Of a stretch of DNA of 64,000 nucleotides, positions 3,215 through 36,745 are shown piece by piece (the stretch's first letter is position 1; each line of letters begins with the position of its first letter). Made by a program: the position numbers and the translations under genes. The stretch is from NCBI GenBank assembly GCA_018820085.1, contig JAHJOV010000010.1, positions 12,179-76,178 of the forward strand, given 5' to 3'. The DNA comes from Patescibacteria group bacterium. Its GTDB lineage: Bacteria > Patescibacteriota > Minisyncoccia > Portnoybacterales > UBA2143. Below the pieces are notes generated by a model. That model was not told the origin of the DNA and ran no database searches. It worked only from the letters and a program-made list of their open reading frames with translations.

Positions 3215-4144
3215 ATGGATATTCAAACCAACAAAGAACAATGGAATCAATTTATAGTTGAAAATGAGGGTTGTTTTTTGCAATCTTGGCAATGGGGAGA
3301 ATTACAGGAATCTATGAATCGGAAAATTTGGCGGATTGAGACACAGGGTTTAAAAGGATTAGTTATTAAGCATGATATAAATTTAGGCAAAAACTATTTG
3401 TATTGTCCTCGAGGTCCAATTGGTCAAGGGGATTTTAATAATTTTATAGAACAAGTTAAAGAGATTGCTCATCAAGAGGGGAGTATTTTTTTTAAGATAG
3501 AGCTAGAAGAATTTAAGGTCCGACCTCAACAGAGGTCCGACCTTAAATTCTTCGTTAAATCCTCAAAACAAATTCAACCAGTTAAGACAGTAATTCTAGA
3601 TATATCTAAATCAGAAAAAGAATTATTAAAACAAATGCATCAGAAGACGAGATATAATATTTGTTTGGCTCAGAAAAAGGGAATTGAGATTAAAGAATCA
3701 GAGGAGGGGTTAGATGACTTTATCAGATTATTAAAACAAACTGCTAAGAGGGACAGGTTTTTTCTACATCCCCGAAAATATTATCAAAAGCTGTTAAAAA
3801 GAGGTCTGGCTAAGTTATTTTTAGCTTATTATCAGAATAAGGTTATAGCCGCCAATTTAATTTGTTTTTTTGGTCAAACAGCTACCTATCTCCACGGCGC
3901 TTCAGATTATAATCATCGTCAGTTGATGGCACCCTATCTTCTTCAGTGGCAAACAATTTTAAAAGCTAAAGAAAAAGGATTGACTCATTACGATTTTTGG
4001 GGTATTAATGAAGAAAAGTGGCCAGGTGTTACTCGATTTAAAAAAGGTTTTGGCGGTCAAGAAGTATCTTATCCGGGTAGCTTTGATTTGATTTTTCAAA
4101 AAACGTGGTATAAGGTCTATAATCTAGCGCGAAAAATTCTATGA
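3215..4144 (+). CDS. FemAB-family peptidyltransferase (peptidoglycan interpeptide bridge formation)
   Basis: FemAB-like motifs (YLHGASDYNHRQLMAPYLLQWQ..., HYDFWGI). Sits upstream of murE. Contains an in-frame 42-bp family-2 mini-repeat at 3509-3550. Confidence 0.65.
   Translation: MDIQTNKEQWNQFIVENEGCFLQSWQWGELQESMNRKIWRIETQGLKGLVIKHDINLGKNYLYCPRGPIGQGDFNNFIEQVKEIAHQEGSIFFKIELEEFKVRPQQRSDLKFFVKSSKQIQPVKTVILDISKSEKELLKQMHQKTRYNICLAQKKGIEIKESEEGLDDFIRLLKQTAKRDRFFLHPRKYYQKLLKRGLAKLFLAYYQNKVIAANLICFFGQTATYLHGASDYNHRQLMAPYLLQWQTILKAKEKGLTHYDFWGINEEKWPGVTRFKKGFGGQEVSYPGSFDLIFQKTWYKVYNLARKIL
3509..3550. repeat. In-frame palindromic mini-repeat inside the FemAB CDS (gaatttaaggtccgacctcaacagaggtccgaccttaaattc)
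   Basis: A perfect 42-bp palindrome-like element with the family-2 core (aggtccgacct). It lies inside ORF 3215-4144 and encodes EFKVRPQQRSDLKF without breaking the frame. Confidence 0.7.
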
Positions 4145-13990: not shown

Positions 13991-14018
13991 CTAAAATTAA
14001 AGATTTGTTAATGTTAAT

Positions 14019-14885
14019 ATGAATAAAAAAGTATTTAAAAAAAATAATCTTTTTTCTCAAAAAGAAGTGACGAAAGCTGAAATCTACCTAGGTGATTCTT
14101 TAGAGGTAATAAATAATTTTAAATCAGACAGCATTGATTTAATTGTAACCTCTCCACCTTACGCTGATCAAAGAAATAGTACATATGGAGGAATTAAGCC
14201 CGATTGTTATGTTGAATGGTTCTTGCCAATTTCTAAAGAACTGTTAAGAGTTTTAAAACCCACAGGAACATTTATATTAAATATAAAGGAAAAAGTAACG
14301 AATGGTGAAAGACATGTATATGTTATAGAGTTGATTTTAGAAATGAAAAAACAAGGATGGTTATGGACAGAAGAATATATCTGGCATAAAAAAAATAGTC
14401 ATCCAGGAAAATGGCCAAATAGATTTAGAGATTCTTGGGAGAGATTATTGCAATTTAATAAAACAAAAGGATTTAATATGTATCAAGAAGAAGTTATGGT
14501 TCCTATGGGTGATTGGGCTAAAACAAGATTAAAGAATTTGAGCAAAACTGATATGAGAAGAGATGATTCAAGGGTTGGTAGCGGTTTTGGAAAAAATGTA
14601 TCCAAATGGATTGGAAGAGAAATGGCCTATCCAACAAATGTATTGATGTTAGCAACCGAAACAGGCAACAAAAACCATAGTGCTGTTTTCCCCAAGAGCC
14701 TTCCTACTTGGTTTATTAAATTATTTACAAAAAGAGGCGATACTGTATTAGATCCATTTTTAGGATCAGGAACGACCTTAATCACTGCTTTAGAGTTAGA
14801 TAGGAATTCAATCGGTATAGAAATACTTAAAGAATATTATGATTTAGCCACAGAAAATATAAATAAAAACATTCAACAATTATGA
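14019..14885 (+). CDS. Beta-class DNA methyltransferase (N4-cytosine or N6-adenine; motif IV SPPY precedes motif I)
   Basis: DLIVTSPPYADQ (motif IV) in the N-terminal part and VLDPFLGSGTTLITA (motif I, FxGxG) near the C-terminus. This is the circularly permuted beta-class order of the N6_N4 MTase family. Confidence 0.8.
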   Translation: MNKKVFKKNNLFSQKEVTKAEIYLGDSLEVINNFKSDSIDLIVTSPPYADQRNSTYGGIKPDCYVEWFLPISKELLRVLKPTGTFILNIKEKVTNGERHVYVIELILEMKKQGWLWTEEYIWHKKNSHPGKWPNRFRDSWERLLQFNKTKGFNMYQEEVMVPMGDWAKTRLKNLSKTDMRRDDSRVGSGFGKNVSKWIGREMAYPTNVLMLATETGNKNHSAVFPKSLPTWFIKLFTKRGDTVLDPFLGSGTTLITALELDRNSIGIEILKEYYDLATENINKNIQQL

Positions 14886-15694
14886 AAAATTTAAATTACA
14901 ATCAATTTAACAAATTTATTGAAAGCGATGTTATTCATCCTTTCTATCAGAAAAGATTATTAAGTCTCAAAAAAATTAAGTTAAATTACTTAATAAAAAG
15001 AAAAAATCCATATCTATTTAAAGCAAAAAATATTCAAACAGCAGGAGATTTTTCGAAATACTTATTAGATGCTTTTCTTTCATCACAAGAAGAAACATTT
15101 TTTGGAGATCTTCTAGAAAATCTTGCTATTCATATTTGTAAACAAATATTTGATGGGAAAAAAGCAGAACAGGTAAAATTTCGTAGTGTTGACCTTATCT
15201 TTAAAAGAGATAATAAACTGTATATTGTTGGCATTAAATCTGGTCCCAATTGGGGCAACAGCGATCAGCTAAACGCTATGAAAGGAAATTTCAAAAAGTC
15301 AAAAGAAACTTTAAAAAAAGAAGGCGAAAAACTAAGAATTATCAGTGTAAATGGTTGTATGTATGGGAAAGATAATAAACCACTCAAAAAGGATAAAAAA
15401 GATTATAAAAGAAACTATTATAAATTATGTGGTCAACAATTCTGGGAGTTAATATCTGCTGATGATAAACTTTATAAGAAGATAATTGAGCCATTGGATA
15501 AAGAAGCTAAAAAGAGAGATGAAGTATTTCAAAGTCTATATGTCAAAAAACTAAACGAGATGACTAAGGACTTAATAGAATTATTTTATACAGATAATGA
15601 TTTAGATTGGAATAAAATAATTGATTATGTTTCTAAAAAAGAAACTAAAAAGAGGAAGCTAAAAGAAAAAAGTAGTTCTAAAGCAAATAAATGA
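14882..15694 (+). CDS. Putative type II restriction endonuclease partner of the MTase (lysine-rich; possible PD-(D/E)xK core)
   Basis: Start overlaps the MTase stop (ATGA), indicating translational coupling. Possible nuclease core VDLIF...YIVGIKSG. No confident family match by eye. Confidence 0.35.
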   Translation: MKNLNYNQFNKFIESDVIHPFYQKRLLSLKKIKLNYLIKRKNPYLFKAKNIQTAGDFSKYLLDAFLSSQEETFFGDLLENLAIHICKQIFDGKKAEQVKFRSVDLIFKRDNKLYIVGIKSGPNWGNSDQLNAMKGNFKKSKETLKKEGEKLRIISVNGCMYGKDNKPLKKDKKDYKRNYYKLCGQQFWELISADDKLYKKIIEPLDKEAKKRDEVFQSLYVKKLNEMTKDLIELFYTDNDLDWNKIIDYVSKKETKKRKLKEKSSSKANK

Positions 15695-15778
15695 AAGATT
15701 TGAAGAAAATTTGGAAGTTGAAATGATTTGAAAAGAATAAAAAGCAGGAAACGAATAACTTCCTGCTCAAAAATTTTA

Positions 15779-16048
15779 TTATTTTTGTCTTTTGATAAAT
15801 TTTTTCATTGTGTTATTGACATTTTTACCGCCCACTTTTACTGTTCCAACTATCCGTCCATAAGAAATAGCATCTTCTGTGTAACTGATAGTTTTATTTT
15901 CAACTAGTTTTTCAAGCTCGTGCTTGGCAGCAGCACCGCCTTTTTGGTTTTTTTCTGGTGCATCAACGTTGGCGAGCCTAATGAACTTATTGTAGGGGAG
16001 ACGAACAGTGTCGCCGTCAATAACCTCTTTGACTTTAGCTTTAGGCAT
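15779..16048 (-). CDS. Small staphylococcal-nuclease (SNase/thermonuclease)-like protein
   Basis: 89 aa with SNase hallmarks EVIDGDTVRL...IRLANVDAPE...YGRIVGTVKVGGKNVN. These correspond to the Ca-binding DxDTx and catalytic DAPE region of thermonuclease. Confidence 0.5.
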   Translation of the reverse strand: MPKAKVKEVIDGDTVRLPYNKFIRLANVDAPEKNQKGGAAAKHELEKLVENKTISYTEDAISYGRIVGTVKVGGKNVNNTMKKFIKRQK

Positions 16049-16119
16049 AAATTTTATTAATTTATTATGAGTAAGGTTCGACTAAGCCTTTTTCGATGTT
16101 ATTCTATCAGATTGGGTTT

Positions 16120-16175
16120 CAATGTCAAGGATTCTTACTTATCAACTTGACAAGAATTCTTTACAAGGGATATAA
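16120..16175 (+). promoter_or_regulatory. Strong sigma70-like promoter TTGACA-N18-TATAAT flanked by direct repeats (candidate autoregulatory operator) for the HTH-Panacea gene
   Basis: TTGACA at 16146-16151 and TATAAT at 16170-16175. Direct repeats caaggattcttac / caagaattcttta bracket the -35 box. A GATATAAT extended -10 is present. Confidence 0.55.
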
Positions 16176-16184
16176 TCAATATAT

Positions 16185-16970
16185 ATGATTAAAGATCTAT
16201 TTAAAAAAATCAAGGCGTTACGTGAAGAAAATAATTTCTCACAGGGATATATGGCAGGAGAGCTTGGAATGTCTCGACCAACCTATACACAGATAGAGAA
16301 AGATGAACGGGAATTGACCATTTCAGAGGCGAAAAAAGTAGCGTCTATATTCAGCATGTCTTTAAAAGATTTGTTAAATGGCGGTAAAAAAGAAATTAAA
16401 GTTAATTTTGAGAAAAAAAAGAAAGTTAAAAAAACGGTTGAACCAAAGATGAGAATTATTATGACTCAAGCAAATGTAGAAAAATTTAAAGAAGTATTGC
16501 TATATATTTTAGAAAAAGCCGGGGCACGGCCAAATATTGGAGAGACCGCTATTTATAAACTGCTCTATTTTATAGATTTTGACTATTATGAGAAATTTGA
16601 AGAACAACTTATAGGCGCCAAATATATTAAAAATCATTTCGGTCCAACACCAATTGAATTTAAAAAAATAACTGATCAGATGATAGAAAAAGGTGAGATA
16701 GAAAAAGTCAAAAGCAAACATTTTCAATATGAGCAAAAAAAATACTTGCCGAGAAGGTCGGCTGACTTGAAAATTTTATCAGCTCAAGAAATTCAACATA
16801 TCGATGATGTCTTAAATCGTCTGTCGTGGAAAAACGCCAAGGAATTAAGTGAATATTCTCATTCGGATACTCCCTGGAGAGTTCATAAAATAGGCGAAGC
16901 AATTAGCTACGAAACTGTTTTTTATCGTGACGATGATCATTCAATTAGGAATTACGATGACGAACTTTAA
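16185..16970 (+). CDS. Fused HTH-XRE DNA-binding domain + Panacea (DUF4065/SocA-like) antitoxin domain protein
   Basis: N-terminus FSQGYMAGELGMSRPTYTQIEKDERELTISEAKKVASIF is a classic XRE HTH. The C-terminal domain ...ARPNIGETAIYKLLYFIDFDYYEKFEEQLIGAKYIKNHFGPTPIEF matches the Panacea/DUF4065 antitoxin signature (KLxKLLYfaD...G..i....Y.a...GPv). Confidence 0.6.
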   Translation: MIKDLFKKIKALREENNFSQGYMAGELGMSRPTYTQIEKDERELTISEAKKVASIFSMSLKDLLNGGKKEIKVNFEKKKKVKKTVEPKMRIIMTQANVEKFKEVLLYILEKAGARPNIGETAIYKLLYFIDFDYYEKFEEQLIGAKYIKNHFGPTPIEFKKITDQMIEKGEIEKVKSKHFQYEQKKYLPRRSADLKILSAQEIQHIDDVLNRLSWKNAKELSEYSHSDTPWRVHKIGEAISYETVFYRDDDHSIRNYDDEL

Positions 16971-17301
16971 GAGTACGATAGAGTTTCAAAAAGATTTCAA
17001 AAAATTATTCAAGAAATTTAAATCATTGGATAGCGATTTGAAAGAGTTTAAAAAAGTTTTAAATGAAGCACCTCTAGGAATTGGCAAACATTTTAATGTT
17101 ATTACGAAAACTGACTTTATATATATTGTTAAGGCCAGATTTTTTTGTAAAAATTTAAAGAAGAAAGATTTACGAATTATTTATTCCCATATTGAAGAGC
17201 AAAAAAAGATTGAATTTATTGAGATGTATTTCAAAGGGGATAAGGAAAGTGAAGATAGAGAAAGAATTAAAAAATACTTAAAATCTCTTTTAACGAGTTA
17301 A
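16957..17301 (+). CDS. RelE/ParE-superfamily-like toxin candidate, overlapping the Panacea gene by 14 bp
   Basis: In-frame ATG at 16957 gives MTNFKSTIEFQKDFKKLFKK...LGIGKHFNVI...ARFFCKNLKKKDLRIIYSHIEEQKKIEFIEMYFKGDKE. This resembles the RelE/YafQ pattern (F.K.FKKL...G..L.G.....YR..RIIY.I.....I.I..IGHR). The 3' overlap with the antitoxin is typical of TA operons. The ORF track gives an upstream alternative start at 16927. Confidence 0.4.
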   Translation: MTNFKSTIEFQKDFKKLFKKFKSLDSDLKEFKKVLNEAPLGIGKHFNVITKTDFIYIVKARFFCKNLKKKDLRIIYSHIEEQKKIEFIEMYFKGDKESEDRERIKKYLKSLLTS

Positions 17302-17375
17302 CGAGGTCGGACCTGAAACCTTGAATTCGCATTATTCTTCTAATAGCTTGGTTTAATAGAAAAAAATCCACGAGA

Positions 17376-17455
17376 CCTCGTCGTAGAAAACCGTTATTTC
17401 ACGCAGTTTTTTTGATTGACCAAAGGCATTTAAGAAGGTATTATTAAAGTATAAA
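17376..17455 (+). promoter_or_regulatory. Terminator-promoter cassette T1 (copy 2): TTGACC-N17-TATTAT
   Basis: About 85% identical to 13914-13990. -35 TTGACC 17418-17423, -10 TATTAT 17441-17446. Preceded by the motif cttggtttaatag, which is also found at 20938-20955. Confidence 0.55.
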
Positions 17456-17525
17456 TTCATTGTCATTCTGAGCCAGCAGACGAAGAATCTCATATAAATA
17501 ATTAAACTCTAGGAAATGTAAATAG

Positions 17526-17717
17526 ATGAAGAAGATTTATTGTAAAAATAAAATTTATTCTGAAAAAGAAATCAATAATATTGCGACTGTCAATAAAATG
17601 GTAACAGTTGACTGTTTAAAAGATGAAAATATGATTAGTGTTGAAAAAGAAGGCGAAGATTGTTTGTTTGAATTTACAAAAACAGGAGAAGATAAATTTT
17701 TATTAACATGGTCATAA
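17526..17717 (+). CDS. Small hypothetical protein leading RM module 2
   Basis: ORF track only. 63 aa with two Cys. Ends 1 bp before the MTase start. No recognizable HTH. Confidence 0.2.
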   Translation: MKKIYCKNKIYSEKEINNIATVNKMVTVDCLKDENMISVEKEGEDCLFEFTKTGEDKFLLTWS

Positions 17718-17718
17718 T

Positions 17719-19014
17719 TTGAAAATTGAGATTATGTTAAAACAATCAAGTACAATAAAATTATTTAAAAAAATCAAGATTGATTCCTCTTGGGCTTTTG
17801 CTGATAAAACTAGAAAAGATACTGCATATATCACTCATGGTTATCATCGCTATCCTGCAAAATTTATTCCGCAAATCGTTTCTCGATTAATTGAAAGATA
17901 TACTAAGAAAGGAGATTTGGTAGTTGATCCATTTGGTGGATGTGGAACAACTTTAGTTGAATCAAAAGTTAATGGTAGACAGTCAATCGGAGTAGATATA
18001 AATCCTGTTGCAGTTTTAATAGCAAAAGCAAAAAAAACTCCAATTAAACCCCTTAAATTAGAAAAATATTACTTAAAATTAAAAAATAAAATAGATTCTT
18101 TTAATAGAAATGCAAAAGTAAGAGTTCCTGAGCACATAAGGATTGATTATTGGTTTGGACCCGAGAAAAAAAAAGAGCTTGCTTTTCTTTTTTCTGAAAT
18201 TTCAAGAATAAAGGATCAGGACGTAAGAGATTTTTTCTATTGTGGTTTTTCAAATATTCTCAAAAATTGTTCAATCTGGCTTCAAAAAAGCAATAAACCA
18301 ACAAGGGATTTTGATAAAAAAATACCTGAACCATTTATGGTTTTTCTACGACAGATTAAAATGATGTTAAGGGGTAATCTTAATTTCTATAATCTTTTAC
18401 AAGAAAGAAAATTTTTAGAAAAGACTTGCGATGTATATTGCGCTGATGCAAGAGAGATACCGGTAAAAACTAATTCAGTTAACTTAATCGTTACTTCTCC
18501 ACCTTATGTTACGTCGTATGAATATGCTGATTTACATCAACTTACTGCTCTTTGGTTTAAATATACCAAAGATTTAAGTGATTTTAGAAAAAGGTTTATA
18601 GGTACTTATCATAATGGAGTAAAGGATATAGTTTTAAACAGCGAAATAGCAGAAGATATAAGACGAAGCTTAGAAAAAAAAGATAAGAAAACAGCTAAAG
18701 AGGTAAGTATATATTTTAGTGAAATGAATCATTGTTTTAAGGAAATGAAAAGAACATTAAAGAAAGGTGGAAGGTCTTGTATTGTTATAGGTAATACAAG
18801 TTTAAAGGGTATAAATATTTTAAATGCAGAGGTATTTACTGAACAATTACAAAATTTAGGGCTTAGAATTGATGATATCATCAAGAGAAAGATTCCTTCA
18901 AAGAATCTACCATCTACTAGAAATAAAAAAACAGGTCGTTTTGCAAAAGCAACGGATAAAAACAAAATTAACATTTATCCAACAGAATATATTTTAATAA
19001 CAAAAAAAGTATGA
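17719..19014 (+). CDS. Alpha-class DNA methyltransferase (motif I DPFGGCGTT ... motif IV SPPY)
   Basis: LVVDPFGGCGTTLVE (motif I) at about aa 65 and LIVTSPPYVTSYEY (motif IV) at about aa 260, with a long target-recognition region between. 431 aa. Confidence 0.75.
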   Translation: MKIEIMLKQSSTIKLFKKIKIDSSWAFADKTRKDTAYITHGYHRYPAKFIPQIVSRLIERYTKKGDLVVDPFGGCGTTLVESKVNGRQSIGVDINPVAVLIAKAKKTPIKPLKLEKYYLKLKNKIDSFNRNAKVRVPEHIRIDYWFGPEKKKELAFLFSEISRIKDQDVRDFFYCGFSNILKNCSIWLQKSNKPTRDFDKKIPEPFMVFLRQIKMMLRGNLNFYNLLQERKFLEKTCDVYCADAREIPVKTNSVNLIVTSPPYVTSYEYADLHQLTALWFKYTKDLSDFRKRFIGTYHNGVKDIVLNSEIAEDIRRSLEKKDKKTAKEVSIYFSEMNHCFKEMKRTLKKGGRSCIVIGNTSLKGINILNAEVFTEQLQNLGLRIDDIIKRKIPSKNLPSTRNKKTGRFAKATDKNKINIYPTEYILITKKV

Positions 19015-19703
19015 TTAAATTCACAAACAATTTTCAAGAAAATGTAGTTCCTCTTATCGAAGATTTTTCTAAAAAATATGGTAACGAACAAGTGCATAGA
19101 TATTTTTTTGAGATACTTACAAAAACAAAAGAATTATATCAACTAAATTGTGAAAAAGACAAAGGACAAAGTTGGCGAAATGAAAGTGGGACCATGCTGG
19201 AAAATTTAGTCGTCTATTTTATACAAGAAGAGGTTAAGAAGTTGGGATATGATTTGATTACTGATGATCAAATAAAAAAAGCATCGCAAGGTAATAAGAT
19301 AATAAGTAAGGTATATCGCAATATTGTTATTCGTTATGGTGATTATTCTATTTTGCCGGACGGCGATATTATTATTTATAACCCTAAAAATGGCAAAGTG
19401 TTATCTATTATTTCCTGCAAAAATTCTTTGCGTGAGCGATATGCACAAACTTTATATTGGAAACTTAAGCTTTCCTTAGATCCTATAACCAAACCGATTA
19501 AAATGTATTTTATTACTATTGATAAAGAAATTGGCAAAAAACCAGAACTTGATATTAATCCGAAAAATGGACCGACAAAACCAAGGATATTGTTAGAACA
19601 TGAAATGGATGGTGTTTATGTTGGCAGAGAATTACAGGATGCGAGCGATAAAGTAAAGGAGTTTGATAAATTCATTGATGATTTAAAAAAAATACTAAAA
19701 TAA
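19011..19703 (+). CDS. Putative type II restriction endonuclease of RM module 2
   Basis: 4-bp ATGA overlap with the upstream MTase. Possible PD-(D/E)xK-like core (ILPDGDIIIY...VLSIISCK). No confident family assignment. Confidence 0.3.
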   Translation: MIKFTNNFQENVVPLIEDFSKKYGNEQVHRYFFEILTKTKELYQLNCEKDKGQSWRNESGTMLENLVVYFIQEEVKKLGYDLITDDQIKKASQGNKIISKVYRNIVIRYGDYSILPDGDIIIYNPKNGKVLSIISCKNSLRERYAQTLYWKLKLSLDPITKPIKMYFITIDKEIGKKPELDINPKNGPTKPRILLEHEMDGVYVGRELQDASDKVKEFDKFIDDLKKILK

Positions 19704-19706
19704 TTT

Positions 19707-20096
19707 ATGGATACAAAAACACAAATTTTAATAATAATTATTTCCTCATTAATATCAGGCATCATTGGCGTCATTATCTCAATTATTTATCATAGAAAAT
19801 ATGAACAACATAAGATTAAAATTGATACATTGAAAAATTTTGTAGCATATAGATATAATACAAAAAGTGTTGAATTTATGAAAACAATTAATGAGATATT
19901 TATCGTATTTCGAAATTCCAAAGAAGTTATAAATACTTTAAATAAGTTACATGAATACATTTCTACAAATCAAAAAGATTTAGCAAGTGATTATCTTGTT
20001 AAACTATTTAAAGCAATGTGTAGAGATTTAAAAATAAATATCAATAAATTTGCTGATGACTCTATCTTCATTCGCACTTTTGACATAAAAGAATAA
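19707..20096 (+). CDS. Hypothetical small protein with N-terminal TM helix
   Basis: ORF track. TM segment ILIIIISSLISGIIGVIISIIY. Tightly packed between the REase candidate and the second MTase. Confidence 0.25.
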   Translation: MDTKTQILIIIISSLISGIIGVIISIIYHRKYEQHKIKIDTLKNFVAYRYNTKSVEFMKTINEIFIVFRNSKEVINTLNKLHEYISTNQKDLASDYLVKLFKAMCRDLKININKFADDSIFIRTFDIKE

Positions 20097-20099
20097 AGT

Positions 20100-20783
20100 A
20101 TGCAAATAGAATCAACAACGCTTTGGGATTTTCTGAGGCAAAATTATGGTGATAAGCCACATGGAAATAATAGATATAATAGCGTTACTCCGGCAATGAT
20201 AATTTGGAATTTATTGCAGAGATATACAAAAGAAGGTGATTTAGTCGTTGATCCTATGTGTGGAAGTGGAACAACTATTGATGTTGCAAAAGAATTAAAT
20301 AGAAAAGTAATCGGATATGATCTTAATATTGTAAGGCCTGATGTAATTAAAAACGATTCTCGTAGAATCCCGCTTCAAGATAATAGTGTTGATTTTGTTT
20401 TTATTGATTCGCCTTATTCTAATAATATTAAATATTCAAATGATGAAAAATGTATTGGTAAAATATCTTGTGAAAGTGAAGAATTTTATAATGAATTAGA
20501 AAAAACAGCAAGTGAAATTGCGAGAATTCTAAAACCAGATAAGGTGATGGGTTGGGTTATTGCTGATCAATGGATAAAGAGAAAATTTACACCTGCAGGA
20601 TTTTTAGTATGGCAGAGGTTGGAAAAATATTTTGAACCAATGGATATTGTCTGTTTGACAAGACATAATCAGACATCAAATACTGGTATTTGGCACGATA
20701 GAGCCAGACAGTATAATTTCTATTTAAGAGGGTTCAAATATTTGTTTATTATGAAGAAGCCAGAGGCGTTGTCCTTAAAATGA
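20100..20783 (+). CDS. Second, small DNA methyltransferase of RM module 2 (motif I ... DSPY)
   Basis: LVVDPMCGSGTTIDVA (motif I) and VDFVFIDSPYSNN (motif IV, D/S-PPY class variant). 227 aa. Confidence 0.7.
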   Translation: MQIESTTLWDFLRQNYGDKPHGNNRYNSVTPAMIIWNLLQRYTKEGDLVVDPMCGSGTTIDVAKELNRKVIGYDLNIVRPDVIKNDSRRIPLQDNSVDFVFIDSPYSNNIKYSNDEKCIGKISCESEEFYNELEKTASEIARILKPDKVMGWVIADQWIKRKFTPAGFLVWQRLEKYFEPMDIVCLTRHNQTSNTGIWHDRARQYNFYLRGFKYLFIMKKPEALSLK

Positions 20784-20801
20784 CGCCTATGGCAAACAAC
20801 C

Positions 20802-23521: not shown

Positions 23522-24178
23522 ATGAAACAAAAAGAAAAATTAAGAGCAGTTGAATTAAGGAAGAAAGGAAAGAGTTATAGTGAAATTTTAAAAAAGATTT
23601 CAGTATGTAAGAGTACTCTAAGTTTATGGTTAAGGGATGTGGAGTTGACTTCTAAACAGTTAGATGATCTTTATAAAAGGGGGCGGGAGAGATGTCGTTA
23701 TAATGGAGCGAAGGCAAACCAACAGAAAAGGATAGAAAGAACTAAATTAATTATCGAAGAAGCAAAAAAAGAATCAAGAATTTTATTTAAAAACCCTTTA
23801 TTTTTATCAGGACTCATGTTATATTGGGCGGAAGGAACTAAGAAAGGAGAGGTTGTAGATTTTAGCAATTCTGATCCAGAAATGATAAAATTAATGATGA
23901 AGTGGTTTAGATCAATATGTAAGGTTCCAGAAGAAAAGTTCAAAATCAATCTCTATATACATGAGTTACATTGCAGGAAAGATATAGAGAAATATTGGTC
24001 AAGCATTACAAAAGTTCCATTGTCTCAATTTCATAAAACCCAAATCAAGTCCACTACTTTAAAACACAGGAAGAATCCTCTTTATGACGGTACATGTTCT
24101 GTTAGAATATACAACAAAGATCTGTTTAGAAAAATTAAAGGATGGAGAATAGGGGTATTAAAAAAAATTGATAGATAG
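23522..24178 (+). CDS. Hypothetical protein with N-terminal HTH-like segment
   Basis: RAVELRKKGKSYSEILKKISVCKSTLSLWLRD resembles a short HTH. The rest is unassigned. Lies just upstream of tRNA-Arg and the recombinase. Confidence 0.3.
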   Translation: MKQKEKLRAVELRKKGKSYSEILKKISVCKSTLSLWLRDVELTSKQLDDLYKRGRERCRYNGAKANQQKRIERTKLIIEEAKKESRILFKNPLFLSGLMLYWAEGTKKGEVVDFSNSDPEMIKLMMKWFRSICKVPEEKFKINLYIHELHCRKDIEKYWSSITKVPLSQFHKTQIKSTTLKHRKNPLYDGTCSVRIYNKDLFRKIKGWRIGVLKKIDR

Positions 24179-24187
24179 TTTATATAT

Positions 24188-24264
24188 GTGCCTGTAGCTC
24201 AGCCGGATAGAGCAACTCCCTTCTAAGGAGTAGGTCGCAGGTTCGAATCCTGCCAGGCGCACCA
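24188..24264 (+). tRNA. tRNA-Arg (anticodon TCT)
   Basis: 77-nt cloverleaf folded by hand: acceptor gtgcctg/caggcgc, D-arm gctc-agccggata-gagc, anticodon stem actcc/ggagt with loop cTTCTAa, T-arm gcagg-ttcgaat-cctgc, discriminator A, encoded CCA. Confidence 0.85.
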
Positions 24265-25719
24265 GTAAGGAAAAGTCAAATTTCGGTGGTTCGCCTCGCT
24301 TCGCTCGGCGACCAAATTGAACGGAATTTTGGGCGAAAAAATCAGTTGGCGGTTTTGTAAAATGTGGTTCGAGCCGATATTTTTCAGAAATGTTGCCATT
24401 TCTTTTTTGTTTTCGGCTTCTACTAATTTAGTGGCTTGATTAAGCGATAAAACGAATTCGCGAGCCGGTTCGAGCCAAGACAAACCTTTTTGCTCAAAGT
24501 CGCTAATTTTTTCTTGAAACCCTACCTTTTGCGATAATAATTCCTGTTTTTTGGCGGCATATTCTTCTGTGGATAAAGCGTCTGTCAAAAACACATCGAG
24601 CAATTTCGCAAGTTTTGTTTCTATTCGGTTTAATTGTTCTTTTAAACTTTCTATTTTTGATTGCGTTTGTTGTTTTGCTTGTTCTTGCTCTGCTTCCAAC
24701 GCCGCCAAAACTTTTTCCGTGTTTTGGCTCGACAAAGAAACTTTTTGAAGAAAGGATTTAATCTGTTCTGCTAAAAGTTCCTCGCGCAAATAATGCTTTT
24801 CTTGGCAAATTCCTTTTTTCTTAGTGCAACGATAATAATTATGTCCCTTCTGGATTTCAGCGGTGATACTTGCTCCGCAAGAAGCGCATTTTAGCAGGCC
24901 GAGAAAAGCAAAATTATGTTTTCTTACTTCTTGCACTTTTCCTCGCTTGCTCATCACTTCTTGGCAGGTATCAAAAAGTTTCTTTGAAATTAACGGCTCG
25001 TGTTGTCCCTCAAAAATTTCCCCGCGATATTTCATCAAGCCAATATAGAAAATATTTTGTAGAATTTTTTGCACATTACTAATAGCTACCTCTCTGCCAA
25101 GATTCCCTCGCAGATTTTTTTCTTTGCACCAATTTGCGAGAAATTTTAGGGTAAATTCGCCAGTGGCGTATAGTTCAAAAAGTTTTTTTACTTTGCTTGA
25201 TTTTTCTCGGTCAATATCAATCATTCTCGTTTTAGGATTGTTTAAATAACCCACTGGCGCCCAGCCGGGCCAGACGCCGTTTCTGATTTTTTGCCGCAAC
25301 CCTCTTTTCACATTCTCTCGCAAATTGTCCACAAAATATTCTGATTGGCCAAAAGCGATGTTCAGCATAAATAATCCTTGCGGTGTCGGTTCAAACCAAA
25401 AAGTGGGAAATTTGAGGGACTTAATCAAGCCGCGATCTACAAAATGGATAATCTTTCCGCCGTCCACGGAATTGCGAGCTAACCTGTCTGGGTGCCACGA
25501 AATTATCCCGTCTGCTTTCCCTTGTTCCAGAAATGACAACATTTCGGCGAATTTTATTCGTCCAGGTTCTTTGGCAGTTTTTGCCTCGCATAGCGAGGCG
25601 ACAATTTCAAGTTTTTCTTTGGCGGCAAATTCTTTTAGCTCAACAAGTTGAGCTTCAATACTTAAAATCTGCCTGTCATCTTCTTCCGTACTTTTGCGAG
25701 CGTAGATAATGTATTTCAT
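24223..25719 (-). CDS. Large serine recombinase (resolvase-domain N-terminus, recombinase domain, zinc ribbon, coiled coil)
   Basis: N-terminus MKYIIYARKSTEEDDRQ with the catalytic Ser in the YARKST context. Zinc ribbon CASCG...YYRCTKKKGICQEKHY followed by coiled coil. The open frame continues through IR-A and 42 nt antisense into tRNA-Arg, so the last ~45 codons are encoded by repeat and tRNA sequence. Confidence 0.85.
   Translation of the reverse strand: MKYIIYARKSTEEDDRQILSIEAQLVELKEFAAKEKLEIVASLCEAKTAKEPGRIKFAEMLSFLEQGKADGIISWHPDRLARNSVDGGKIIHFVDRGLIKSLKFPTFWFEPTPQGLFMLNIAFGQSEYFVDNLRENVKRGLRQKIRNGVWPGWAPVGYLNNPKTRMIDIDREKSSKVKKLFELYATGEFTLKFLANWCKEKNLRGNLGREVAISNVQKILQNIFYIGLMKYRGEIFEGQHEPLISKKLFDTCQEVMSKRGKVQEVRKHNFAFLGLLKCASCGASITAEIQKGHNYYRCTKKKGICQEKHYLREELLAEQIKSFLQKVSLSSQNTEKVLAALEAEQEQAKQQTQSKIESLKEQLNRIETKLAKLLDVFLTDALSTEEYAAKKQELLSQKVGFQEKISDFEQKGLSWLEPAREFVLSLNQATKLVEAENKKEMATFLKNIGSNHILQNRQLIFSPKIPFNLVAERSEANHRNLTFPYWCAWQDSNLRPTP
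24259..24357. repeat. IR-A, left copy (99 bp, 100% identical inverted copy at 25771-25869); begins with the last 6 nt of tRNA-Arg
   Basis: gcaccagtaaggaaaagtcaaatttcggtggttcgcctcgcttcgctcggcgaccaaattgaacggaattttgggcgaaaaaatcagttggcggttttg. Exact reverse complement at 25771-25869. A diverged third copy in direct orientation at about 29720-29855. Confidence 0.9.
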
Positions 25720-25770
25720 ATTTTTTTCCTTTGTTAATTGTTAATAATTGAAAAAATTTTCTTTTACCAA

Positions 25771-25869
25771 TTCAAAACCGCCAACTGATTTTTTCGCCCA
25801 AAATTCCGTTCAATTTGGTCGCCGAGCGAAGCGAGGCGAACCACCGAAATTTGACTTTTCCTTACTGGT
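25771..25869. repeat. IR-A, right copy (inverted)
   Basis: Perfect reverse complement of 24259-24357. The continuation of the homology (rc of 24357-24385) resumes at about 25985-26012, beyond IR-B. This suggests IR-B was inserted into a once longer repeat. Confidence 0.9.
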
Positions 25870-25955
25870 GCTCTATTCTGAAAATAGTTCGAACGCATTT
25901 TGCCGCCTGCGGCGGCGACGGCCAGCCCCCAAAAATTTGAGCGGCTTCGCCGCGA
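25866..25955. repeat. IR-B, left copy (90 bp, GC-rich; inverted copy at 34344-34432 with 2 differences)
   Basis: gtgctctattctgaaaatagttcgaacgcattttgccgcctgcggcggcgacggccagcccccaaaaatttgagcggcttcgccgcgatc. It contains the internal palindromes cgccgcctgcggcggcg and ctattctgaaaatag. Its GC content contrasts with the AT-rich surroundings. Confidence 0.85.
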
Positions 25956-26053
25956 TCTTAAAAACTGCCAAAGAACCTGTAAAAAACATCGGCTCAAACC
26001 ACATTTTGTAAAAGAAAATTTTTTCATTGCTAATTATTAAATTAACATTCAAT

Positions 26054-26755
26054 ATGAACAAAGCGAAAAAGCCATGTTGTGGCAAATGGGAAGAACCAGA
26101 AAAAACATCTTCCCCAAAAGCCGCGGCAGAAATAAAACAAGAAATTAAAGTGCGATATGACCAATTTGCCAAAGAAGGTGGCTCAGCTGAAGGTTGTTGT
26201 CCTTTGGCCGGAGAAAAAGCTGAAAGTTTTGCTTTAGAACATGGGCTCTATAGCCAAGAGGATCTTGCTTTACTTCCTAAGTTAGCTATTAATCTTTCTC
26301 GAGGTTGTGGCAATCCCACTAGTTTTGCTGATATCCGGCCAGGTGAGGTAGTTGCTGATTTTGGTTGTGGTGGAGGCATTGATCTTGTTTTGGCTGCTCA
26401 TAAGGTAGGACCAACTGGAAAAGTAATAGGAATAGACTTTGCCCCCCAGATGATTGAAAGAGCAAAACAAGTAATGAAAGAAGCTGGCTTATCTGATAGA
26501 GTTGAGTTTATTTTGATGGATATAGAAAATCCACAGGTTCCAGATAATATTGCTGATGAGGCGATCTCTAACTGTGTAATTAATCTCTGTCCCTGTAAGC
26601 CCTGTGTTTACAAACAAATCTTTGATATTCTAAAGCCTGGGGGTCGTCTGGCCATCTCTGATATTGTTACTATAGGAGATGTTGACCGTAAAATTCGGGA
26701 GTACTTTCAGTCAATTTGGTCAGGATGTGTTGGTGGAGCAATAGAGGAGGGATAA
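26054..26755 (+). CDS. arsM: Arsenite S-adenosylmethionine methyltransferase ArsM-family protein
   Basis: ArsM hallmarks: GCGNPTSFADIRPGEVVADFGCGGGIDLVLAAHKVGPTGKVIGIDFAPQM and the conserved cysteine block ISNCVINLCP, then LKPGGRLAISDIV. N-terminal Cys pairs (CCGKW, CCPLAG). Likely start is the ATG at 26054; the ORF track starts at 26027. Confidence 0.7.
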   Translation: MNKAKKPCCGKWEEPEKTSSPKAAAEIKQEIKVRYDQFAKEGGSAEGCCPLAGEKAESFALEHGLYSQEDLALLPKLAINLSRGCGNPTSFADIRPGEVVADFGCGGGIDLVLAAHKVGPTGKVIGIDFAPQMIERAKQVMKEAGLSDRVEFILMDIENPQVPDNIADEAISNCVINLCPCKPCVYKQIFDILKPGGRLAISDIVTIGDVDRKIREYFQSIWSGCVGGAIEEG

Positions 26756-26775
26756 ATAAAAAAATTATTTGGATA

Positions 26776-34432: not shown

Positions 34433-34561
34433 TAGTGGACAAATCTGTCCTATCTGAGTGGCCATATTTAGCCAATCTGGATAATGACTTAATCAAGCCA
34501 TTCTCCGAAGTTTGAATATTGGGTTAAAAATAGAGTTTAAAACTAATTTTCTTATAGTAAT

Positions 34562-35368
34562 ATGTTCAAGACAACAGAAGACCAAAAAGAATATATTAGA
34601 GAAACCTATCCTGAAGTTACAGATCATCGCATTGATGAAAGACATTGGGATCTTCATTGTTCGCATTGTAATATGACGCGAGGATTTCAGGTTATTGAAA
34701 GAAGTGAGGGTAGGGAATATACCAATTATGGTGGTGTTTATAGTATTGATAGTGAAGCTCCTTACTCTATTTATTTTAGGTGTCCTGTGTGCAGTGGATA
34801 TAAGCAATGGATATTGTATAAAATTAGTAGTCGAGAGGTGATAGAAGAGGTAAATCCAGGCGAAGAACCGAAAAAAAAGACTGTAGTTCGTTATTATCGT
34901 GTTACATCTTTGCCGAGCGAAGGAGTGGAAGATATGGAAGAAATTCCAGAAAACCCACCATCATTAAGAACCGCGTATAAACAAGCAATTCGCGCAATGG
35001 ATGCTAATGCACACATAGCGGCTGCAGCTATGTTTCGTAGAGCTCTTCAGATAATAACCAGGGATATTCTTGATGCAACACCTGGAAGTCTTGCTGCCGA
35101 ATTAAGTGAAGTTGTTGGGAAAAAATATAATGGTGTGAAAATTACAAATGATTTTAGCGATATTGGTTATATATTAAAAGAAGCGGGTAATCAGGGGGCA
35201 CATCCCGATAAGGATCCAGATTTACTTGAATTTACTGAACAAGATGCTCAAGACTTGCAAAAAATATTTATGGAGATTGTATCAGACTTATTTTTTGTTC
35301 CTGAGGTAGCAAAAAAATCACGCGAAGATTTCCTAAAACGTAGAAAAATTGGTTCAAAAACGATTTGA
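34562..35368 (+). CDS. Zinc-ribbon (CxxC...CxxC) protein with C-terminal DUF4145/HEPN-like domain (speculative)
   Basis: CSHCN...CPVCSG pair in the N-terminal half. The C-terminal half (AMFRRALQIITRDILDA...ILKEAGNQGAHPDKD) resembles the DUF4145 pattern. Confidence 0.3.
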   Translation: MFKTTEDQKEYIRETYPEVTDHRIDERHWDLHCSHCNMTRGFQVIERSEGREYTNYGGVYSIDSEAPYSIYFRCPVCSGYKQWILYKISSREVIEEVNPGEEPKKKTVVRYYRVTSLPSEGVEDMEEIPENPPSLRTAYKQAIRAMDANAHIAAAAMFRRALQIITRDILDATPGSLAAELSEVVGKKYNGVKITNDFSDIGYILKEAGNQGAHPDKDPDLLEFTEQDAQDLQKIFMEIVSDLFFVPEVAKKSREDFLKRRKIGSKTI

Positions 35369-35632
35369 GATAATTGTAAGAGAGTTTATTAGACTATATT
35401 TCAGTTTTAATAAAGTAGAACTTATAACCTCCCAACCCACTCAATTTTACTCTTGAATCTTTTATCATTTAGGTCTAGGATATAGAAGCTTGGATGTTCC
35501 TTAAGAAAAGTTAGAGCATCCTTGACTAGAGCGTACTGTGTCTAAATTAACAAACCTATTAGAGAATAAGAGAGGGTTTGTTTTTTGAACCTTAAAAATA
35601 TAGAGAAATGATTATAACAAAAGGAGGGTATC

Positions 35633-36667
35633 ATGGAATTAAAGAATATAGATTTTGGAAATGTTTTTGTCTCAGCTGGAACATTAAATTTCTTTGGACA
35701 GGGGTGGCCATATCACAGGGTATATAAATGGTTGTTTAAGAAGGGTTTTGATTTTTCTGGAGCAACCTTTATTTCCAAAACAACAACTTTTTCTCCTCGG
35801 CAAGGCAATATGCCTATAAGAAGGGATTGTCAGCCGATAGTAAAGGTTAGTGGAGCTAAGGTATATAAGGCCACTAAAGAAGCTTTGAGATTAAGGTTTC
35901 TTGAAATGCAATCTTTGTTTGCCCCGGACTGCATCAAGGTTGATTTATTAAAAGGAATAGCATTTAATTCTGTTGGTTTGAGCGGACCGGGAGTCATTAA
36001 TTTGTTAAATAGAGATATTTGGCAGAATATGTCAGTTCCTTTTATGGTCTCGTTTATGAGTTTAGGCAATGTGCTTAAAGAAAAGTTGAACGAAACTAAA
36101 CTTTTTACAGAATTAATGATGGAGGCATTGTCGGAGTTTAAGTCACCTTTTGGAATTCAGGTAAATGTTTTGTGTCCTAATACTGGACACCCAACAAAGG
36201 GTATGATTAAAGATTCATTAGCTATTTTGGGTGTAATATCTAAACTAGGTATTCCAGTGGACTTAAAAATTGGAGTGTCTGATGCTTACGAAGCAGGAAT
36301 TGATTTCATAAAGGAGATTGAACGGTCTGGTCTTTGTGATTGTCTGACTTGTTCCAATGCCATACCTTATGGAAAAATGGAAGATCAGATTAACTGGAAA
36401 AAGATTTGTGGGAATAAGTCTCCATTGGAAGATTTTGGGGGAGGGGCGCTTTCAGGAAAGCCCTTGTTCCCGATAGTTTTAAATTGGTTAAGAAAGGTTC
36501 GTTGGGCAGGCGTAAAGATGCCTATTAAAGTTGGTGGAGGAATTTTATCCTCTGATAATGCCCGAGTGATGTTTTTAAATGGGGCGAATGCAATAGAGCT
36601 TGGTGTTGTTTCTATTTTGCGTCCTTGGAGGGTGAAGAGTATTATCGATATTTGTAAGATAAAATAG
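35633..36667 (+). CDS. Dihydroorotate dehydrogenase-like (class 1 DHOD/DHPD family TIM-barrel) protein
   Basis: Motifs NVFVSAGTLNFFG, VNVLCPNTGHP, LTCSNAIPYG and VGGGILSSDNARVMFLNGANAIELG resemble PyrD-family signatures. Confidence 0.5.
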   Translation: MELKNIDFGNVFVSAGTLNFFGQGWPYHRVYKWLFKKGFDFSGATFISKTTTFSPRQGNMPIRRDCQPIVKVSGAKVYKATKEALRLRFLEMQSLFAPDCIKVDLLKGIAFNSVGLSGPGVINLLNRDIWQNMSVPFMVSFMSLGNVLKEKLNETKLFTELMMEALSEFKSPFGIQVNVLCPNTGHPTKGMIKDSLAILGVISKLGIPVDLKIGVSDAYEAGIDFIKEIERSGLCDCLTCSNAIPYGKMEDQINWKKICGNKSPLEDFGGGALSGKPLFPIVLNWLRKVRWAGVKMPIKVGGGILSSDNARVMFLNGANAIELGVVSILRPWRVKSIIDICKIK

Positions 36668-36745
36668 AAGAAATAAAGAGGATGGTGCAGAATGTGCCAT
36701 CCTCTTTACTTTATTATCTAGTTTGAGTATAATAAATCAATGTAT

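Follow-up and report, generated by a model that had tools for sequence, protein, structure and literature searches.

Integrative elements that rely on a large serine recombinase (LSR), among them A118, phiC31 and Bxb1, SCCmec with CcrAB, Anabaena XisF and SPbeta SprA, insert site-specifically and share few bases with their target at the junctions. The same holds for an element found beside the tRNA-Arg(TCT) gene of a Patescibacteria group bacterium, in a stretch of 64,000 nucleotides (GenBank assembly GCA_018820085.1, contig JAHJOV010000010.1, positions 12,179 to 76,178) that is called the window below and whose numbering is used throughout. Its recombinase has the three domains of those systems, but the element departs from them in several ways. 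It sits at the extreme 3′ end of tRNA genes of many kinds, a location where islands are normally tyrosine-integrase elements (PMC4383910). In addition, conserved arms of about 100 nt lie on either side of the core, a complete second attachment (att) module lies inverted inside the integrated element, the open reading frame (ORF) of the recombinase crosses the att site, and satellites without a recombinase exist.

Other described systems share single features with this locus. In Mx8 (intP/intX) and with SSV1-type integrases, where attP lies within the gene, integration likewise alters the 3′ end of the recombinase gene, and the free and integrated C-termini differ. Those integrases are tyrosine recombinases; in the present element the change is confined to the last ~10-25 residues, and antisense tRNA encodes the integrated tail. 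The Hin, Gin, Cin and Pin systems likewise place a serine recombinase gene in a segment bracketed by inverted repeats (hin in the H segment), and both orientations occur among the relatives described here. Hin-type invertases are small (~190 amino acids) and use 26-bp sites and a Fis-bound enhancer, whereas the present system has an LSR, arms of ~100 nt and one strongly dominant orientation, and belongs to a mobile island. Excision of the island at its outer cores would give a circle with two ~200-bp inverted, site-bearing repeats that part recombinase from cargo, as in the yeast 2-micron plasmid. FLP, however, is a tyrosine recombinase, and in the present family, whose circle is a prediction, the minimal elements showed no replication genes. 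Tycheposons are likewise small cargo islands at tRNA genes, a minority of which use an LSR (bioRxiv 10.1101/2020.12.28.424599); their hosts belong to another phylum, and neither long inverted att arms nor an internal inverted att module nor read-through into the tRNA is mentioned in that report.

The explanation that we consider probable is that of an LSR element that integrates at the 3′ end of tRNA genes, in which an inverted att module inside the element keeps recombinase and cargo together and allows the recombinase segment to invert. An earlier note on this DNA, made from its letters alone, had described a perfect 99-bp inverted repeat around the recombinase gene and taken it for a recently formed invertible cassette; its observation of the locus is partly confirmed.

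Organization of the element

In the following, A and C designate two arms of ~95-100 nt around a short core, B the last recombinase codons and e′ a short segment upstream of the recombinase start codon, a prime marking an inverted copy. Segment d′ corresponds to recombinase codons ~30-40 and f to codons 47-53, with a GC hairpin between them, and both recur as copies beside the inner ends of the C arms. In the orientation of the recombinase, and with a slash for each junction with host DNA, the canonical order is flank/core-C, d, cargo (on the opposite strand), e, B′, f′, C′-core′-A′, e′, recombinase, B, A-core/tRNA. The window reads tRNA-Arg/GCAC/A, the recombinase pointing toward the tRNA, A′-core-C′, f-B-e′, 8.4 kb of cargo and d′-C/GCAC/flank (Table 1). 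From 26027 down to 24239 it is colinear with a second locus (L002; 87% over 1.8 kb), the central module included.

Table 1. Coordinates of the features discussed, in window numbering
Feature	Position	Strand	Remarks
tRNA-Arg(TCT), integration target	24188-24264	+	ARAGORN; Rfam 70.9 bits; empty sites in L112 and L119
Large serine recombinase, 498 amino acids	24223-25719	-	Last ~12 residues from antisense tRNA
Core GCAC at attR-type junction (tRNA/A arm)	24259-24262	+	Crossover would fall inside
IR1 left arm (A arm)	24259-24357	+	Minus strand encodes 33 residues of the recombinase C-terminal tail
Segment B, codons ...KNIGSNHIL	24353-24384	-	Ancestral stop now sense (TTA CAA); P0088 stops here
Segments f (25563-25582), GC hairpin (25583-25599) and d′ (25600-25632)	25563-25632	-	Within the recombinase gene
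Segment e′	25749-25770	-	Just 5′ of the recombinase start; a copy also precedes the cargo genes
IR1 right arm (A′)	25773-25871	+	Part of the intact internal att module
IR2 proximal arm (C′)	25864-25959	+	Starts with tRNA-3′-half-like motif ...TAGTTCGAAC...; GC hairpins, one terminator-like
Central core TGGTGC, IR1/IR2 junction	25866-25871	+	Reverse complement of tRNA end GCACCA
Short sense copies of recombinase pieces: f (25960-25979), B with stop (25982-26013), e′ (26005-26026)	25960-26026	+	Lead into the cargo
Cargo segment	26027-34240	+	Two ArsM-like methyltransferases, membrane protein, CobO-like adenosyltransferase, retron-like reverse transcriptase (-), RmuC, unknown 403-amino-acid protein
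Degenerate third A-arm copy (3′ half) with e′	29768-29876	+	86-92% identity; copy split by a 34-nt hairpin; just upstream of the reverse transcriptase
Distal d′ copy, halves 34243-34258 and 34322-34340	34243-34340	+	63-nt hairpin insert between the halves
IR2 distal arm (C)	34342-34436	+	Ends in core GCAC (34429-34432) of the attL-type junction
Two further genes (DUF4145; DHO_dh-like)	34437-36740	+	Between the distal core and tRNA-His; absent from L112

The two arms of the first inverted repeat (IR1) are complementary at 99 of 99 nt, and the window holds only these two full copies at up to 3 mismatches, with 0 expected by chance. The perfect repeat of the earlier note thus exists, with its left arm where it had been placed and its right arm 2 nt away from the reported 25771-25869. 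Sequence and tRNA call agree that the left arm opens with the last 6 nt of the tRNA gene (GCACCA), as reported; an Rfam scan matched two tRNAs and nothing else. It was also right that the recombinase is the sole gene between the arms, its minus-strand ORF being the only one found there, and that its frame is open down to 24223 in the anticodon region, where its TAG stop (24223-24225) overlaps the anticodon.

The right arm had further been thought to continue at 25985-26012, past a 90-bp interruption ascribed to the insertion of a second element, and both of these ideas fail. The 32-nt match concerned (24353-24384 against 25982-26013, 88%) is not colinear with the arm: on the left A is followed by B, whereas on the right, read as the reverse complement, B is followed by a gap of ~110 nt and then by A. 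At 25982-26013 the last nine codons of the recombinase recur separately, inverted and still followed by a stop (KNIGSNHIL-stop). The supposed interruption is itself one arm of a second inverted repeat (IR2), formed by the C arms, which match over 96 nt at 96.9% identity with a 1-nt indel between them. The BLAST extents of IR1 and IR2 overlap at 25864-25871.

GCAC is the sole stretch common to the empty site, the tRNA/A junction, the central module and the C/flank junction. Across the family the three sites of an element share a core of 4-8 nt that matches the end of the host tRNA and co-varies with it: TGGTGC in most loci, TGGCTG or TGGCTC for Gln and Asn, TGGCGG for Ser and GTGG for Ala. Judged by this sharing, A-core/tRNA would be the attR form and flank/core-C the attL form of the site, and the central module an intact, inverted A-core-C joint. 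The module has the sequence that a circle joint would have, in a comparison with the LSR transposons Tn4451 and Tn5397 (TnpX/TndX), which excise to a circle and insert at sites similar to the joint of their ends. At the far end of the element only GCAC of the tRNA is repeated and the tRNA body is untouched, unlike in Islander-type islands, which replace the 3′ part of the tRNA and leave a displaced direct-repeat fragment at their far end. The C arm contains a T-loop-like motif, TYCGAAC, ~4-5 nt further from the core than the T-loop of the tRNA, an offset that resembles the 5-bp difference between attP and attB half-sites of LSRs. Inspection by eye did not establish dyad symmetry around the core.

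Open frames cross the central module on both strands and were considered as a small protein or a split recombinase; they differ between loci, and the idea was dropped. The d′ frame meets a stop inside C′, and only the A-core-C frame looks protein-constrained. As a separate observation, the insert that splits the distal d′ copy (34259-34321) holds a perfect 16-bp hairpin (CAGTAAATTTTTCAAG...CTTGAAAAATTTACTG), and a hairpin on the same stem (CAGTAAATTTTTCAA...TTGAAAAATTTACTG) interrupts d in an unrelated locus (L051, ~3480-3520).

Occupied and empty tRNA-Arg sites

The earlier note had proposed an empty-site comparison, which was carried out on other assemblies of the window organism, reached through the neighbouring helix-turn-helix (HTH) protein. 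The sibling strain L112, whose left flank is 99.95% identical to the window, is empty: it lacks 24263-36740 and reads ...GGCGCAC/TGTGTATGG, running directly into tRNA-His. A relative with another HTH allele, L119, is empty as well (...GGGCGCAC/TGTTTTT), while L116, which has the HTH allele of L119, is occupied (...GCGCAC/CAGTAAGG...). Both empty tRNA-Arg sites thus read ...GCGCAC/TGT and occupied sites ...GCGCAC/CAGTAAGG, and native tRNA-Arg alleles end in ...GGCGCAC/T. Therefore, the first inserted base follows GCGCAC directly, the CA of the encoded CCA comes from the element, and, as far as the sequence tells, tRNA-Arg is left intact. The recombinase would cut inside the core, at about tRNA positions 71-74, in which case the tRNA would remain whole and gain an encoded CCA.

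The element of L116 is 100% identical to that of the window over 1.6 kb, with a flank only 73-87% identical. It was considered as the same element in a different species, which was ruled out: the same genome is 99.2% identical downstream (L122) and only the HTH-tRNA flank diverges. Likewise, L098 and L087 were rejected as an empty/occupied pair, their loci being unrelated.

The empty sites in L112 and L119 bear out that the unit is mobile. They do not agree with a unit bounded by the inverted repeat and moving alone, since the block that is present or absent is the whole island of recombinase and cargo. The unit bounded by the cores extends over ~24263-34432 (10.2 kb) and coincides with a block of 38-43% G+C, against ~30% upstream. 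A search of metagenome contigs for the predicted empty-site pattern, in which the end of tRNA-Arg is joined to the flank after 34433, gave 0 matches. The two genes at 34437-36740 stay attached to the cargo in all contigs other than L112; they may be an older island or belong to the mobile unit, or their absence from L112 may be a separate deletion.

The recombinase and its C-terminal tail

The recombinase begins with a Resolvase domain (PF00239, E = 2.4e-21, residues 4-150), in which the catalytic Ser lies in a YARKST motif read from the translation, followed by a Recombinase domain (PF07508, E = 3.7e-14) and a zinc ribbon (PF13408, Zn_ribbon_recom, E = 7.6e-8). For the coiled coil that is embedded in the zinc ribbon of LSRs and controls directionality, the one candidate is a sub-threshold leucine-zipper-like match at residues 342-375. 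The choice between an LSR and an IS607-like enzyme, left to be made by the earlier note, falls on the LSR, the protein scoring 25.8 bits against a cut-off of 110 with NF033518, the model of IS607 transposases, which are small and have an N-terminal HTH. The protein scores far under every curated NCBIfam cut-off, including those of the CcrB and XisF models, for which it is well below; its weak matches are A118 integrase, YokA/SprA, CcrB and XisF, and its closest relative of solved structure is A118 integrase (1e-6). With 498 amino acids and the LSR domain set it is not a small (~190 amino acids) Hin/Gin-type recombinase with a C-terminal HTH, nor is a tyrosine integrase involved, as the sole recombinase of the element is of the serine type. 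A search of a viral collection with the recombinase returned two N-terminal fragments only and pointed to neither a phage nor a circular contig. Upstream of the gene, e′ might be taken for a promoter; a sigma-70-type promoter scan found no match in it and does not support this role.

A protein search scored at least 7850 relatives of the recombinase, and the best 120 clusters were examined for their tails. At 78-90% identity, they represent many Patescibacteria lineages, and most span the C-terminal tail. The frame is open through A and then into antisense tRNA in 116 of the 120, and two (P0095 and P0120) have A-core-C tails. The tail of P0088 stops at the ancestral position, and those of P0096 and P0104 end at the B/e′ junction, though a script had sorted them as tRNA-type. 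Apparent C-type tails in P0033 were discarded, as these are canonical elements beside degenerate C-like sequence.

Codon patterns differ along the tail. Variation at the third position is modestly raised in the inner 22 codons of A (0.235/0.188/0.325 for the three positions) and not in the outer 10. Read in frame with A-core, C begins with ~14 codons that are conserved at the protein level, W-C-S-I-L-E/K-L/I-V-R-T-H-F-A-A (WCSILxxVRTHFAA...), with synonymous changes and a switch between the Ser codons AGT and TCT. The integrated tail, on the other hand, varies with the tRNA allele, and the recombinases of L116 and the window differ there only. The suggestion that inversion would swap the C-terminus of the recombinase is thus upheld for the extreme end of the protein, where a protein-conserved A-core-C tail is set against a tail dictated by the tRNA. 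From these patterns we infer that the recombinase is translated across A-core-C when excised, as its ORF would read on a circle, or flipped, and that integration replaces its extreme C-terminus with tRNA-dictated residues.

Distribution in Patescibacteria

Species-representative genomes gave at least 433 confirmed matches, and 80 loci were analysed. In most of those whose contig extends past the gene, the recombinase 3′ end abuts a tRNA on the opposite strand; the targets are tRNAs for Leu, Arg, Ile, Lys, Phe, Gly, Glu, Asn, Gln, Ala, Val, Met and Ser. IR1, of ~100 nt, surrounds the recombinase in 47 of the 80 loci, at many different tRNAs. An IR2 of ~95 nt is also found in 35 of these 47, with its inner arm abutting IR1 and its outer arm 0.6-2.4 kb away. 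Being a conserved trait of the family, IR1 is not the recent formation that the earlier note had supposed.

Within an element, the median identity of the arms is 99% for IR1 and 100% for IR2, whereas between elements that of the A arm is 62%. Because identity is ~99% within elements and ~62% between them, perfect arms speak of continuing homogenisation, not of recent origin, and the contrast in sequence indicates concerted evolution. The element family is widespread in Patescibacteria and apparently undescribed so far, no description having been found in the full-text literature searched for it. A separate observation concerns assembly: seven short-read contigs of the window species (L113, L114, L116, L118 and L125-L127) end at or within the A and C arms, and these repeats seem to interrupt assemblies of Patescibacteria genomes systematically.

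Orientation and simple elements

The locus L094 is a complete canonical element on one contig of 10.6 kb in which the recombinase segment is flipped between arms of 102 nt that are 100% identical; its recombinase ORF is intact and reads A-core-C. An invertible segment, as the earlier note had it, is therefore seen in this relative, with no orientation polymorphism at the window locus, where six assemblies are alike.

The pattern of a tRNA followed by an A arm and e′ was found at 24 metagenome loci, most of which are mini-elements without a recombinase, arranged as tRNA-A′-e′-cargo (0.5-0.8 kb)-d′-C′-flank. This layout shows that an ordinary integrated element simply has A as one of its ends and C as the other. 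It also implies, from sequence, that non-autonomous relatives exist, which are presumably mobilised in trans. Mini-elements were recorded in L087, L088, L092, L093, L096, L099, L102, L104, L105, L107, L109 and L110; in L087 one contig holds two of them, with arms only 77-91% alike.

Further arrangements include tRNA-A′-e′-recombinase in L090, and a recombinase co-directional with a cargo unit, together with chains of units, in L081 and L082. In L047 (3799-5595), two inverted tRNA-Ala genes (cgc and tgc) enclose the recombinase unit, as they would after recombination of the internal att module with a second tRNA and the resulting inversion of a chromosome segment.

Proposed origin of the inverted module and alternative explanations

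In the explanation that we favour, the two 99-nt arms would be two copies of the A arm of an attachment module, A-core-C, of ~200 bp. The left arm would form the attR-type junction and the right arm would belong to the intact internal module, leaving the C arms as a second inverted repeat around the cargo. Such an arrangement could have arisen from a minimal recombinase element (C-f-B-e′-rec-B-A) in tandem with a simple cargo element, the junction segment [A-core-C-f-B] then being inverted across the short e/e′ repeat. The inversion would turn direct repeats of ~100 bp, which are prone to deletion, into inverted repeats; as these only flip, recombinase and cargo would stay together. Recombination between the arms, or gene conversion, would keep them identical and occasionally flip the recombinase segment.

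Several points weigh against this explanation. L112 lacks 12.5 kb (24263-36740), not just the core-bounded 10.2 kb, and as the missing part includes 34437-36740 the right boundary of the mobile unit is not cleanly proven. The putative crossover position is deduced from shared sequence, recombination not having been directly observed, and a palindromic central dinucleotide, as GC would be, is unusual where an LSR site is directional. Among the small ORFs of the cargo, none stood out as a recombination directionality factor, and no search was aimed at one. All six assemblies that cross the inner edge of the left arm (the window, L111, L113 and L116-L118) have the canonical orientation; this single orientation in the species, together with tails of 116 against 2, means that inversion is rare or counter-selected. 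Finally, the un-inverted tandem state was not seen in ~137 loci, and a positive function of the internal inverted att module is not established.

A stronger form of the same explanation gives that module a function. The circle would then carry two inverted sites and the LSR would flip its own gene in the chromosome; a flip or an excision would exchange the tRNA-dictated C-terminus for the A-core-C one, acting as a switch of directionality or activity in place of a directionality factor, in a family spreading across Patescibacteria by way of the universal tRNA 3′ end. We regard this as unlikely.

It is distinctly less than probable, and in our view quite doubtful, that the recombinase unit A′...A is an autonomous transposon with terminal inverted repeats of 99 nt and that the cargo unit C...C′ is a second such transposon alongside. 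Each unit does lie inside its own long repeat with the core at the outer ends, the recombinase unit of L047 stands alone between its tRNA-Ala genes, and units alternate in the chains of L082. However, occupied and empty sites differ by the whole island, the simple elements without a recombinase have A and C as their two ends and not one arm twice, and contigs that read arm-recombinase-arm (L021, L116) are explicable as assembly breaks at repeats. Moreover, serine recombinases acting on inverted sites invert and do not excise.

An explanation at the level of RNA or single-stranded DNA, in which the 99-bp duplex regulates the recombinase or is its true substrate and pairing is under selection, seems quite improbable too. 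It would account for the perfect complementarity and for the GC hairpin conserved in each arm, whose sequence varies between elements while the hairpin is kept, and Patescibacteria take up DNA as single strands. Yet a transcript over both arms lacks evidence, the arms match no Rfam family, and they are identical as DNA with no relaxation of the G-U type. The C arms, 0.6-8.4 kb apart, are nearly as identical, and the A arm also bears a coding signal.

That IR1 is a recently formed inverted duplication, making a new invertible cassette at one locus, agrees with arms 100% identical over 99 nt but is very improbable, the same repeat occupying the same place relative to gene and tRNA in 47 of 80 loci while elements differ by ~38%. 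That the repeat arose in assembly, through a chimeric inverted join in a metagenome-assembled genome, can be given next to no credence: contigs of the species often break at or near the arms, but independent assemblies of the species from NCBI, ENA, JGI and Logan data show the same layout (L111, L113, L116-L118), as do dozens of other genomes.

Cargo and neighbouring genes

The two ArsM-like SAM methyltransferases of the cargo (26027-26755 and 28403-29704) are paralogues that share a 210-nt stretch at 72% identity, one of them with an HMA metal-binding domain. Between them lie the CobO-like corrinoid adenosyltransferase and a Cys-rich ORF of 51 amino acids, and the ArsM and CobO genes may form a metal(loid)-methylation cassette. 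The retron-like reverse transcriptase (30011-31015, minus strand) reaches 127 bits with the retron St85 model, below its cut-off of 235; it adjoins an RmuC-family protein (31526-32791, plus strand). The degenerate A-arm copy at 29768-29876 is probably a remnant of another unit. Since the reverse transcriptase and RmuC lie beside this degenerate A-arm/e′ copy, the cargo looks composite and defence-like.

Upstream of the element, ahead of pilM/N, the region ~14000-20800 (annotation of L111) contains several restriction-modification genes (three N6_N4_Mtase, RE_EcoO109I and RE_BsaWI) and a SocA_Panacea-domain protein, and is a defence-rich neighbourhood. The HTH protein beside tRNA-Arg (23522-24178, plus strand) has 1704 relatives (E <= 1e-20), many on contigs of ~1 kb. 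An HTH allele at 80% identity, with a different tRNA-Arg allele, occurs in a genome otherwise 99% identical downstream (L116 against L122), and the HTH gene with tRNA-Arg looks like a mobile or hypervariable module. In L115 (841-984) an identical HTH gene is followed by a tRNA-Arg with a differing 3′ half and then by another tRNA-like sequence, which may be a different island at the same tRNA.

Significance

Long, homogenised inverted att arms combined with an internal inverted site are an architecture that was not found described in the full-text literature searched. Because the arms break short-read assemblies at these loci, they also bear on the quality of genomes of the candidate phyla radiation (CPR). 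If the recombinase recognises generic features of tRNAs with a programmable core, it would be a possible tool for genome integration. Patescibacteria (CPR) have tiny genomes, and gene exchange among them is poorly known. The element family described here is very abundant in this group and brings defence-like and metabolic cargo to the 3′ end of almost any tRNA gene by means of a serine recombinase.

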